A stretch of DNA of 59,501 nt. It comes from a virus. The stretch spans positions 1-59,501 of IMG/VR virus record IMGVR_UViG_3300039098_000024, one strand, 5' to 3'. This document shows, piece after piece, positions 37,228-38,019 of this stretch. Positions within the stretch are counted from its first letter, which is position 1; every line of letters begins with the position of its first letter. The notes beneath the pieces are model-generated. The model was given only the letters and a program-made list of their open reading frames with translations. It ran no database searches and was not told the DNA's origin. The position numbers and the translations under genes are program-made.

Positions 37228-38019
37228 TTACTTAATAATATCGTATTTAATTTTTTTGTCAGGAAAGTAGTCATGTAGTTCAATATCGTCTGGGTTAATG
37301 TTGTCAATGTCAAAGAACAAATTGTCTTTAACTGTAAGTGATGGTTGCCATCTAGGTTCTCTAGTGCTTTGTATCTCTTTAAAGATTTCAGCATGCTTTT
37401 GGTATACATGAATGTTACCATATGCCATAGTAAGTGTTCCTACTTTCAATCTAGTTGCAGTTGCTACTAGGTGAGTTAGCAAAGCCATCTCAGCAATGTC
37501 ATAAGGTACGCCTATACAAAAATCTGCCGACCTCTGGTATACTGTTGTGTGTAGTCTCTCTTGGTCGTCTACGTGAAATTGCATCAACAATAAACAAGGT
37601 GGCAGCTTCATGTCTTTAGTTTGTAGTGGGTTCCAGCCTGTAACAATAATTCGTCTAGATTGTGGGTTAGTCTTAATAGTATCAATAGCCTCTTGTATCT
37701 GGTCTCTGTTCTCTTCGTTGAAGTTACGCCATTGAACACCATAGGTAGGTCCAATGCTGTCGTTCTCGTCAGCCCATAAATTCCATATGTTAATTCCGTT
37801 GTCTTTTAGATATGTAATCTTGTCAGTGCCTTTTAGGTACCATAGTGTTTCGTGTTTGATGTGGTCGAAGTTGATACGTTTAGTCGTTAGTAGTGGGAAA
37901 CCTTCAGATAAGTCAAATTTAAGTTGTTCACCTAACAATGCTTTTATCTTGCCATTTCTAGCGTTCAAGGTCATACCCTCTGTGAGTATCTTTTTACCCA
38001 AGTCTAGATAATCTTTCAT
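37228..38019 (-). CDS. Thymidylate-synthase-fold pyrimidine C5 methyl/hydroxymethyl-transferase (263 aa); Asp replaces the uracil-specifying Asn
   Basis: Full-length collinearity with ThyA: FPLLTTKR, HETLWYL, IWNLWAD, GPTYGVQWR, SRRIIVTGWNP, catalytic PPC(142), YQRSAD, HVY. It has VPYD(174)IA where ThyA has LPFN(177)IA, and C-L where ThyA has C-H. Confidence 0.8.
   Translation of the reverse strand: MKDYLDLGKKILTEGMTLNARNGKIKALLGEQLKFDLSEGFPLLTTKRINFDHIKHETLWYLKGTDKITYLKDNGINIWNLWADENDSIGPTYGVQWRNFNEENRDQIQEAIDTIKTNPQSRRIIVTGWNPLQTKDMKLPPCLLLMQFHVDDQERLHTTVYQRSADFCIGVPYDIAEMALLTHLVATATRLKVGTLTMAYGNIHVYQKHAEIFKEIQSTREPRWQPSLTVKDNLFFDIDNINPDDIELHDYFPDKKIKYDIIK

Follow-up and report, generated by a model that had tools for sequence, protein, structure and literature searches.

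The 59,501-nucleotide stretch of DNA analysed here (IMG/VR virus record IMGVR_UViG_3300039098_000024, positions 1 to 59,501; hereafter the window) comes from an uncultured, metagenome-derived phage. At positions 37228-38019 of the minus strand it carries an open reading frame (ORF) for a 263-residue homologue of thymidylate synthase (TS) with the ThyA fold, in which the residue that sets pyrimidine specificity, position 177 of E. coli ThyA, is Asp. We consider it fairly probable that this protein is a C5-methylase of deoxycytidine monophosphate (dCMP) built on the ThyA architecture. It would make 5-methyl-dCMP, which most likely appears as 5-methylcytosine (5mC) in the phage DNA. The ThyA-type fold, the residue pattern, its conservation throughout a clade and the gene contexts are observations; the step from these to the product is a prediction.

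The thymidylate synthase homologue

An AGGAG ribosome-binding site lies 6 nt ahead of the ATG with which the ORF begins. Pfam family PF00303 (Thymidylat_synt) covers residues 2-261 of the product, from position 1 to position 264 of the 266 in the profile (E = 4e-85), and a phmmer search of the PDB gives bona fide ThyA enzymes as top matches (6auj at 7e-65, E. coli ThyA at 1e-58). Identity to bacterial ThyA is 41-49%. The AlphaFold2 model (pLDDT 93.4) superimposes on E. coli ThyA over its full length, including the C-terminal tail, with a TM score of 0.95-0.96 and a root-mean-square deviation of 1.5 Å. The full-length profile, the fold and the catalytic residues place the protein in the TS superfamily, as claimed in the original prediction, which was made from the DNA sequence without database searches.

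Relatives of the phage are scarce. A megablast search with 20 kb of the window gave zero matches to GenBank phages, and tblastn with the protein and with its active-site segment gave only matches below 60% identity, the best being canonical enzymes with Asn177, so there is no cultured relative to lean on. Not one clade member is present among 50,697 GenBank phage records. A related-locus search of IMG/VR using the single protein found no match; an alignment-based scan of IMG/VR produced three clade members (L003, L004 and L006) and other Asp177 lineages.

Active-site residues across the clade

For the comparison of residues, sequences were aligned with MAFFT using E. coli ThyA as the anchor, and positions in its numbering are marked Ec where confusion could arise. 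The homologue retains R21, E58, W80, W83, Y94, R126, R127, C146, R166, S167, D169, H207 and Y209 (Ec numbering). R21, R126', R127', R166, E58, Y94, H207, Y209 and the catalytic Cys are moreover invariant across the clade. Codon GAC (37498-37500, minus strand) encodes D174, aligned to the Asn of GVPFNIA and thus equivalent to Ec177. Codons TGT (37594-37596) and TTA (37591-37593), on the same strand, encode the catalytic C142 followed by L143, where E. coli has C146 and H147. These codons were read directly, and HMMER alignments to ThyA structures in the PDB pair the residues in the same way, with 'gvpYDia' opposite 'gvpFNia' and 'ppcL' opposite 'ppcH'. Both substitutions had been noted in the original prediction, and the alignment and phylogeny that it proposed as a check do place Asp, and not a conserved Asn, at the specificity position. 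In ThyA, the Asn at this position reads O4 and N3 of uracil, and His147 belongs to a water network that reaches O4 and Y94. With Asp174 for Asn177 and Leu143 for His147, the protein departs from the canonical TS specific for deoxyuridine monophosphate (dUMP; EC 2.1.1.45).

Of the best 120 homologues from 5.8 billion proteins, the motifs PPC[LIV] and GVPYDIAEM characterise the 27 closest (46-86% identity), one of which, P0005, is a fragment that stops before the second motif, and are found also in P0068. All of the bacterial ThyA ranked below these 27 (45-49% identity) have PPCH and GVPFNIASY; P0076, which reads PPCL and GVPFDIASS, stands apart as another Asp177 variant. The clade comprises 31 sequences from uncultured phages, including the three IMG/VR members. 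It is monophyletic in 98 of 100 neighbour-joining bootstraps, and in the tree it lies beside canonical ThyA, far from Xp12 TS, from T4 gp42 (the T4 dCMP hydroxymethylase) and from the 5-hydroxy-dCMP synthase of RL38J1.

Asp177 is invariant over the 31 members, as are T93, Y176, E180 and M181. Position 147 is Leu, Ile or Val in every member, as against His in all 22 of the canonical sequences aligned, each of which has Asn at 177. Position 143 is Leu or Ile, and position 169 Asp, throughout the clade. The Thr at Ec93 (V93 in E. coli) is T92 of the window protein (codon 37744-37746, minus strand), and is present in 37 of the 38 other, more distant Asp177 sequences sampled from IMG/VR. The latter tend to have V, L or C at 147 and Q or E at 180; in the 22 Asn177 sequences, position 93 is V, I or T, position 147 is His and position 180 is Ser. 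T93, [LIV]147 and [EQ]180 thus recur in more distantly related Asp177 sequences, a recurrence that suggests a selected specificity switch. V93T, H147 to L/I/V and S180 to E/Q, found with Asp177 in separate groups of TS, may represent a convergent four-position signature. When 1.84 billion cluster representatives were searched with a profile, 15 of the top 150 matches proved to have Asp177. As they occur in several different sequence contexts, some of them otherwise canonical, the switch may have arisen more than once.

A sequencing error at Asp174 was considered and ruled out: the identical protein is present on 6 contigs, and the change is clade-wide and accompanied by co-variation. Copies 65-70% identical to the window protein also exist, and a closer sibling phage (L061, described below) has the gene too, so that the gene is maintained in the lineage.

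Predicted reaction and product

The change N177D (N229D in L. casei) turns TS into a dCMP methylase, as cited in PMC8670742 and PMC13326640. In the MetaGPA study (Yang et al., eLife 2021; PMC8670742), positions 177 and 147 were the two TS positions most closely tied to cytosine-modified viral contigs. When Asp177 homologues of TS were co-expressed with T4 gp1, 5-methyl-deoxycytidine (5mdC) was obtained in vivo with five of seven metagenomic enzymes and with the Xp12 enzyme (bioRxiv 10.1101/2024.12.05.627091). The original prediction of dCMP as substrate gains support from the Asp177 signature and from the MetaGPA positions, and is itself a prediction from sequence.

The residues that decide the product have also been described. 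The paper on the ternary complex of T4 dCMP hydroxymethylase (dCH) identifies Asp or Glu three residues before the catalytic Cys as the mark of a hydroxymethylase, the D145N mutation abolishing formation of 5-hydroxymethyl-dCMP (5hm-dCMP); further marks are Ser or Thr at Ec V93, Val in place of W83, and the absence of the C-terminal tail (PMC6400193). In a 2026 paper in Nucleic Acids Research, methyl products are correlated with L143, and flavin-dependent 5-hydroxy-dCMP synthases are characterised by D169N (PMC13326640). T4 gp42, RL38J1_216 and Xp12 TS were re-aligned with the window protein, and behave as published. At positions 143, 147, 169 and 177 respectively, T4 gp42 has D, T, D and D; RL38J1_216 has E, T, N and D, and has lost both E58 and W80; Xp12 TS has N, P, D and D; and the window protein has L, L, D and D, with E58, W80, W83 and the tail retained. 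The T4 enzyme therefore does have Asp at the specificity position, as had been stated in the original prediction.

The Leu at Ec143 is L139 of the window protein (codon 37603-37605, minus strand), located by alignment as the determinant described in PMC6400193 and PMC13326640. L139, D166 (Ec D169), W79 and W82, together with a tail of the same length as in E. coli, make up an intact hydride-transfer apparatus. At the sequence level, Asp at 177, a non-acidic residue at 143, D169, W80/W83 and the tail are the features of a dCMP C5-methyltransferase of the Xp12 TS class. The published residues thus favour 5-methyl-dCMP as the predicted product, and disfavour hydroxymethyl and 5-hydroxy products. 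The original prediction had offered 5-methyl and 5-hydroxymethyl side by side; the former is strengthened by L143, W83, the tail and D169, and the latter is weakened by the absence of Asp or Glu at 143.

On the basis of ThyA chemistry and the conserved residues, we propose the following reaction. C142 would attack C6 of dCMP, and D174, in place of the uracil-reading Asn, would accept the hydrogen-bond pattern of N3 and the 4-amino group of cytosine. The methylene of 5,10-methylene-tetrahydrofolate would then move to C5, and transfer of a hydride from the cofactor would yield 5-methyl-dCMP and dihydrofolate (DHF). This last step is expected because L139, W79/W82, D166 and the C-terminal tail are all kept. 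The 5-methyl-dCMP would be phosphorylated by the Tmk-like kinase resident in the phage and by the nucleoside diphosphate kinase of the host, and the resulting nucleotide would be incorporated by the family-B-like phage polymerase to give 5mC DNA resistant to many restriction enzymes. Some of the pool would be deaminated to a thymine nucleotide by the resident enzyme with a dCMP-deaminase fold, as proposed for Xp12. Such deamination would explain why ThyX and serine hydroxymethyltransferase (SHMT), which are present in a sibling phage, are missing here.

Gene context in other phages of the clade

The clade was followed into eight loci of other phages, namely the contigs of five clade members (L048-L052) and the three from IMG/VR, with 11-21 kb fetched. 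All eight have a gene for a P-loop kinase of about 160 residues abutting the TS gene, at a distance of at most 22 nt. A dUTPase gene (about 135 residues) abuts the TS gene or lies just past the kinase in five of them; in a sixth it lies at a distance of 6.5 kb. The kinase-TS-dUTPase trio thus acts like a mobile cassette, being found in phages whose replication modules differ (PolA, PolB, D5-type primases). Neither a deaminase with the cytidine deaminase (CDA) motifs nor a MazG homologue was found in the DNA fetched from the eight loci. So tight a link to a private kinase fits what is expected of a non-canonical deoxynucleoside monophosphate (dNMP) that needs its own kinase, and it is this linkage in other phages that supports a dedicated pathway.

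Sibling phages and the variable slot

Two sibling contigs, L059 and L060, were reached through homologues of the DUF2800 nuclease, and each is colinear gene for gene with the window over 29.9-50.3 kb. They share the genes for orf274, a deaminase (with HAE and PCxxC intact), a kinase, a ligase, a dUTPase-fold protein, the DUF2800 nuclease, a single-stranded DNA-binding protein (SSB), SNF2, a primase and a polymerase. L060 has ThyX (PF02511, 8224-8931) between the ligase and dUTPase genes, which corresponds to 41049-41625 of the window, and SHMT (PF00464, 12085-13332) right after the SSB gene, which is the slot occupied by TS in the window (36514-38150). At the first of these positions the window has small ORFs. 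The 21 kb fetched from L059 extend across the replication module, and neither a TS of the ThyX or ThyA type nor SHMT was found in them. L061, a closer sibling with many frameshifts, has the Asp-type TS after SSB, as in the window, and no remnant of ThyX or SHMT was found in the window itself. Thymidylate and folate genes are thus swappable accessories in this phage family, and the TS gene would be an accessory acquisition in the variable slot downstream of the SSB gene.

The same slot, between the SSB gene and a 129-residue ORF, also holds three small ORFs (36501-37217, minus strand; 70, 120 and 62 residues), taken from the ORF list, two of them with CxxC...CxxC zinc-ribbon motifs. They have no tblastn match in L059 or L060, though the flanking genes do match. 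Between the SSB and TS genes a consensus scan finds a weak terminator-like hairpin (GGGACTTCGGTCCC then TTTTAT; 38127-38140, minus strand). A gap of 234 nt after the SSB gene of L059 contains a similar GGTCC...GGACC palindrome. The hairpin is a weak indication that TS occupies a separate accessory slot.

A giant ORF of 2736 residues (21492-29702, plus strand) has no Pfam domain in the window. Its homologue in L060, a phage without the Asp-type TS, has 3093 residues and a C5 DNA_methylase domain (PF00145; 20127-21224, minus strand). The Asp-type TS and the C5 DNA_methylase domain may be alternative routes to 5mC within one phage family.

The resident deaminase, kinase and dUTPase-fold proteins

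Genes for a dCMP-deaminase-fold protein, a Tmk-like kinase and a dUTPase-fold protein had been recognised in the original prediction, and Pfam, PHROG 761 and Foldseek bear out all three. The first (45693-46442, minus strand; 249 residues) is a divergent zinc deaminase with a dCMP-deaminase-like fold and a family-specific N-terminal domain of about 120 residues (PF00383 at 7.8e-6). Its zinc site, HAE and PCxxC, is invariant in eight homologues; the family has 8 members in 5.8 billion proteins. The AlphaFold2 model (pLDDT 88) finds dCMP deaminases as its best Foldseek matches (2w4l, 4p9c and 1vq2, being human DCTD, cyanophage S-TIM5 and T4 Cd), with E values near 1e-4 and a target-normalised TM of about 0.6. 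The sequence has no match in the PDB, and no detectable similarity to the Xp12 deaminase. In three loci of the homologues (L053-L055), the deaminase is flanked by an ORF of 270-280 residues (orf274) and by a Tmk-like kinase. The enzyme could make dUMP from dCMP, deoxythymidine monophosphate (dTMP) from 5-methyl-dCMP, or both.

The stop codon of the deaminase overlaps the start of the kinase gene (ATGA). The kinase (45097-45696, minus strand; 199 residues) matches PHROG 761, thymidylate kinase, at 2e-14, has weak Pfam and NCBIfam matches to Tmk, and matches the PDB in the P-loop only. Its motifs, GxDGxGKST and DRxxxSxxxY, appear Tmk-like by eye. Orthologues adjoin the deaminase in L053-L055, L059 and L060. 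It lies 7 kb from TS, is the resident Tmk-like gene of the family, and is a candidate for phosphorylating both dTMP and 5-methyl-dCMP.

The third protein (40663-41049, minus strand; 128 residues) is a divergent member of the trimeric dUTPase fold, with a Pfam dUTPase match at 5.5e-9 and a PDB alignment to 3c3i through all five motifs. Motifs I-III are recognisable, with RGS for RSS in motif II; the Gln of motif IV is replaced by Ser and the Phe of motif V by Leu. In NCBIfam it scores 29 bits, far short of the Dut cut-off of 102.6. Orthologues 59-61% identical are found in L053 (13825-14208) and L059 (8965-9375; 61%). The three together form a subfamily with RGS in motif II, Ser, Ala or Gly for the Gln of motif IV, and Leu or Glu for the Phe 'lid' of motif V. 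A dCTPase activity is not inferable from this protein, and the fold differs from the one suggested by the sequence of T4 gp56, which by eye seems all-alpha.

Because these three genes accompany ThyX and SHMT in L060, and no TS in the 21 kb fetched from L059, they do not qualify as partners dedicated to the Asp-type enzyme: they are ancestral nucleotide-supply core genes of the phage family. For this reason the T4-style pathway that the original prediction had assembled from them is, in that form, not supported. The TS gene would have been acquired without its usual kinase and dUTPase. All this weakens the argument by association but leaves the inference at the level of the enzyme untouched.

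Further modification enzymes were looked for with Pfam in 47 ORFs of the window, and no glycosyltransferase, DNA methyltransferase, carbamoyltransferase, TET-like domain or second TS was found; no glycosyltransferase had been recognised in the original prediction either. As most ORFs match nothing in Pfam, this absence is weak evidence.

Palindrome frequencies

Palindrome counts over the whole window were compared with the maximal-order Markov expectation. TCGA is depleted (92 observed against 142.6 expected, z -6.1), as is CATG (167 against 227.5, z -5.1), and to a lesser extent AATT (z -3.9) and GGCC (z -3.1); GATATC occurs once against 12.3 expected. GATC is not depleted. In the 5mC DNA of Xp12, TaqI (TCGA) and MluCI (AATT) cut completely and MboI (GATC) cuts; NlaIII (CATG) is blocked. 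As a proxy for DNA modification these statistics are ambiguous.

Evaluation of the proposed function and its alternatives

Several observations weigh against a dCMP methylase that places 5mC in the DNA. For the window protein, as for the whole clade, dCMP methylation is predicted from a sequence signature and by analogy. Identity to the validated Xp12 enzyme is only 24-26%, and two of seven Asp177 enzymes tested gave no 5mdC (bioRxiv 10.1101/2024.12.05.627091). The L143 rule is a correlation, and Xp12 itself carries Asn at this position. T92, invariant in the clade, matches one of the hydroxymethylase marks, namely Ser or Thr at Ec V93; it may be part of cytosine recognition and not of water activation, because Thr accompanies Asp177 also in lineages with L143. 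The TS gene in the window lacks the adjacent kinase and dUTPase genes usual for the clade, and the resident kinase, deaminase and dUTPase-like genes, whose use on 5-methyl-dC nucleotides is predicted, are present also in siblings with ThyX or no TS. The C-containing palindromes TCGA, CATG and GGCC are still depleted, which suggests that restriction pressure persists at these sites, and the GC and CpG content is the same as in siblings without the TS gene. Complete replacement of C in the phage DNA is uncertain, because an enzyme to clear dCTP could not be identified.

An extension of the proposal is that the dCMP methylase displaced ThyX and SHMT and that, together with the resident deaminase, it provides thymidylate by a cytosine route, yielding 5mC and T or T alone, with the dUTPase-fold protein, given its missing motif IV Gln and motif V Phe, possibly acting as a dCTPase, a part that this fold is not yet known to play where phages replace dC. 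The acquired gene would then serve a route from dCMP through 5-methyl-dCMP to a thymine nucleotide, with no dUMP-dependent synthase. We regard this as rather doubtful. That the enzyme is purely a thymidylate bypass, in which the deaminase converts 5-methyl-dCMP to dTMP in place of ThyX and SHMT, the kinase is a dTMP kinase and the cytosine of the virion is mostly ordinary, seems to us unlikely. A bypass would account for the presence of ThyX and SHMT at the corresponding positions of L060 and of neither gene, nor any remnant, in the window. It also suits the ancestral status of the deaminase and kinase in the family and their translational coupling, a genome in which no dedicated dCTPase was identified, a base composition of 62% A+T, and the continued depletion of C-containing palindromes. 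In Xp12, moreover, labelled cytosine enters both 5mC and T, and 5mC-selective deaminases have been proposed as the source of the thymine nucleotide (bioRxiv 10.1101/2024.12.05.627091). However, no CDA-motif deaminase was found in the DNA fetched from the eight other clade loci, where the kinase is always adjacent, so the product of the clade is normally used as such. Similarly, the deaminase, kinase and dUTPase-like genes are present in L059, where no TS was found over 21 kb, so the host can evidently supply dTMP to phages of this family. The isosteric 5-methyl-dCMP, too, may well be accepted by a kinase that acts on dTMP.

A plain displacement of ThyX by a non-orthologous ThyA, making dTMP from dUMP despite Asp174 or having dual specificity, is quite improbable. 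Such an enzyme would be in keeping with the 49% identity to bacterial ThyA and the full set of catalytic residues, and TS is a normal accessory function in the family, as the ThyX of the sibling indicates. The dCMP-deaminase-fold and dUTPase-fold genes could also be cited here, since the canonical forms of both yield dUMP. Entries for the same protein in public databases (NCBI WGS LGOV01, JGI/IMG, ENA) are named 'thymidylate synthase', and its score exceeds the TIGR03284 thymidylate synthase cut-off in NCBIfam (251.5 against 108.35 bits). The stricter equivalog cut-offs tell against this, the score being below that of NF002497 (280.8 against 327 bits) and also below those of NF002499 and others. 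The Asn found in 22 of 22 canonical sequences is replaced in all 31 members of the clade, and positions 147, 93, 180 and 181 change with it. Mutagenesis from Asn to Asp shifts preference to dCMP, as cited in PMC8670742 and PMC13326640, and Asp177 TS is statistically tied to viral contigs with modified cytosine (PMC8670742; bioRxiv 10.1101/2024.12.05.627091). By these residue criteria, the public name is probably wrong as a description of function.

It is very unlikely that the protein is a hydroxymethylase of the T4 type, making 5hm-dCMP that is then possibly decorated by unrecognised enzymes. Asp177 is indeed common to T4 gp42, T92 fits the Ser/Thr half of the dCH signature, and a transferase could hide among the many phage ORFs without a recognisable family. 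But Leu stands three residues before the catalytic Cys, where in T4 dCH the change D145N is already enough to abolish 5hm-dCMP (PMC6400193). W83 and the cofactor-closing C-terminal tail are kept, where T4 dCH has Val and no tail; the two proteins are 23% identical and far apart in the tree; and no glycosyltransferase or carbamoyltransferase was found by Pfam in the 47 ORFs. A flavin-dependent 5-hydroxy-dCMP synthase of the RB69 gp48, DLP3 gp80 or RL38J1_216 type, known from diverse viral TS homologues (PMC13326640) and likewise with Asp177, is scarcely credible, given Asp and not Asn at 169 in all 31 clade members (D166 here), Leu and not Glu at 143 (L139), the retention of E58 and W80, both lost in RL38J1_216, and the failure to find arabinose or hexose transferase genes.

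Comparison with known systems

Enzymes of the Xp12 kind have been known since 1976. The window protein and Xp12 TS (QNN97214.1; PaMx74 and the MetaGPA TS are related) have in common the superfamily, Asp177, a residue other than His at 147, Tyr176, Asp169 and a predicted conversion of dCMP to 5-methyl-dCMP, and the window phage too encodes a CDA-fold deaminase, the source of thymine nucleotides in the Xp12 model. The window protein does not however belong to the Xp12/PaMx74 clade, being 24-26% identical and on a separate, distant branch of the tree. Xp12 TS has features of its own (Asn143, Pro147, Phe83 and a longer body). The two are thus of the same predicted function class and of different lineage. 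Their surroundings differ also. Xp12 has a dedicated cluster, consisting of a MazG-like ORF (annotated as a HAD hydrolase; MazG by eye), TS, the deaminase and dihydrofolate reductase (DHFR). In the window the accessory genes are family core genes, the deaminase is 7.7 kb from TS, and no MazG homologue or DHFR was found; the search aimed at MazG covered the related loci other than the window.

Compared with E. coli ThyA, the length and tail are the same, as are the catalytic Cys, the phosphate-binding Arg residues, E58, W80, W83, Y94, L143 and D169. The differences fixed across the clade are N177D, H147L, V93T, F176Y, S180E and Y181M, and the expected substrate is dCMP in place of dUMP. In the engineered enzymes, N177D of E. 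coli and N229D of L. casei, a ThyA scaffold carries this one specificity switch. The window protein, a natural enzyme, has at least five more co-varying changes in the region of the active site, which presumably optimise the turnover of dCMP. It resembles T4 gp42 in the specificity-determining Asp and in a Ser/Thr close to the catalytic Tyr, and it differs in having Leu for gp42 Asp145, Trp for Val85 and a tail, with DHF as the expected cofactor product in place of tetrahydrofolate.

The set of viral TS with Asp177 and a residue other than His at 147 described in the MetaGPA study (Yang et al., eLife 2021; PMC8670742) has exactly this two-position signature. In that set MazG (PRA-PH) and a deaminase are often within 3 kb, an arrangement not seen in the window. 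Publication of the signature dates from 2021 and validation of related metagenomic enzymes from 2024; the window protein is an addition to these, from a small, uncultured, ThyA-proximal clade.

Other features of the window

A full-length tmRNA (48862-49176, minus strand) scores 86.5 bits against Rfam RF00023 (gathering score 47), and ARAGORN gives the tag peptide AKNIINSLLGAVRDAFTPSVRAFA (then stop). It lies with a tRNA-Leu(aag) (48434-48528, minus strand) in a non-coding gap between two leftward gene blocks. The polymerase (30427-32544, minus strand) is divergent, with a family-B-like N-terminal FDIES motif, a PHROG 1252 match at 2e-81 and no Pfam match. The phage also encodes a sigma-70-like factor (Sigma70_r2/r4; 41625-42590, minus strand).

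Implications

If the proposed function is correct, an uncultured AT-rich phage lineage joins the viruses that build 5mC into their DNA before replication, and a whole clade that public pipelines call 'thymidylate synthase' is flagged. The signature, the chemistry and the biological rationale were published previously, and the finding does not open a new question. It does provide a residue rule for automatic annotation, in which T93, L/I/V147, D177 and E/Q180 are combined with L143 and D169. The Asp-type TS, with linked deaminases and kinases, would be a source of tools for 5mC chemistry and sequencing.

The comparison within the family shows ThyX and SHMT, an Asp-type ThyA, or nothing in the nucleotide-metabolism slots of otherwise colinear phages. 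These slot swaps are a natural experiment on how phages exchange modules for dTTP supply and DNA modification.

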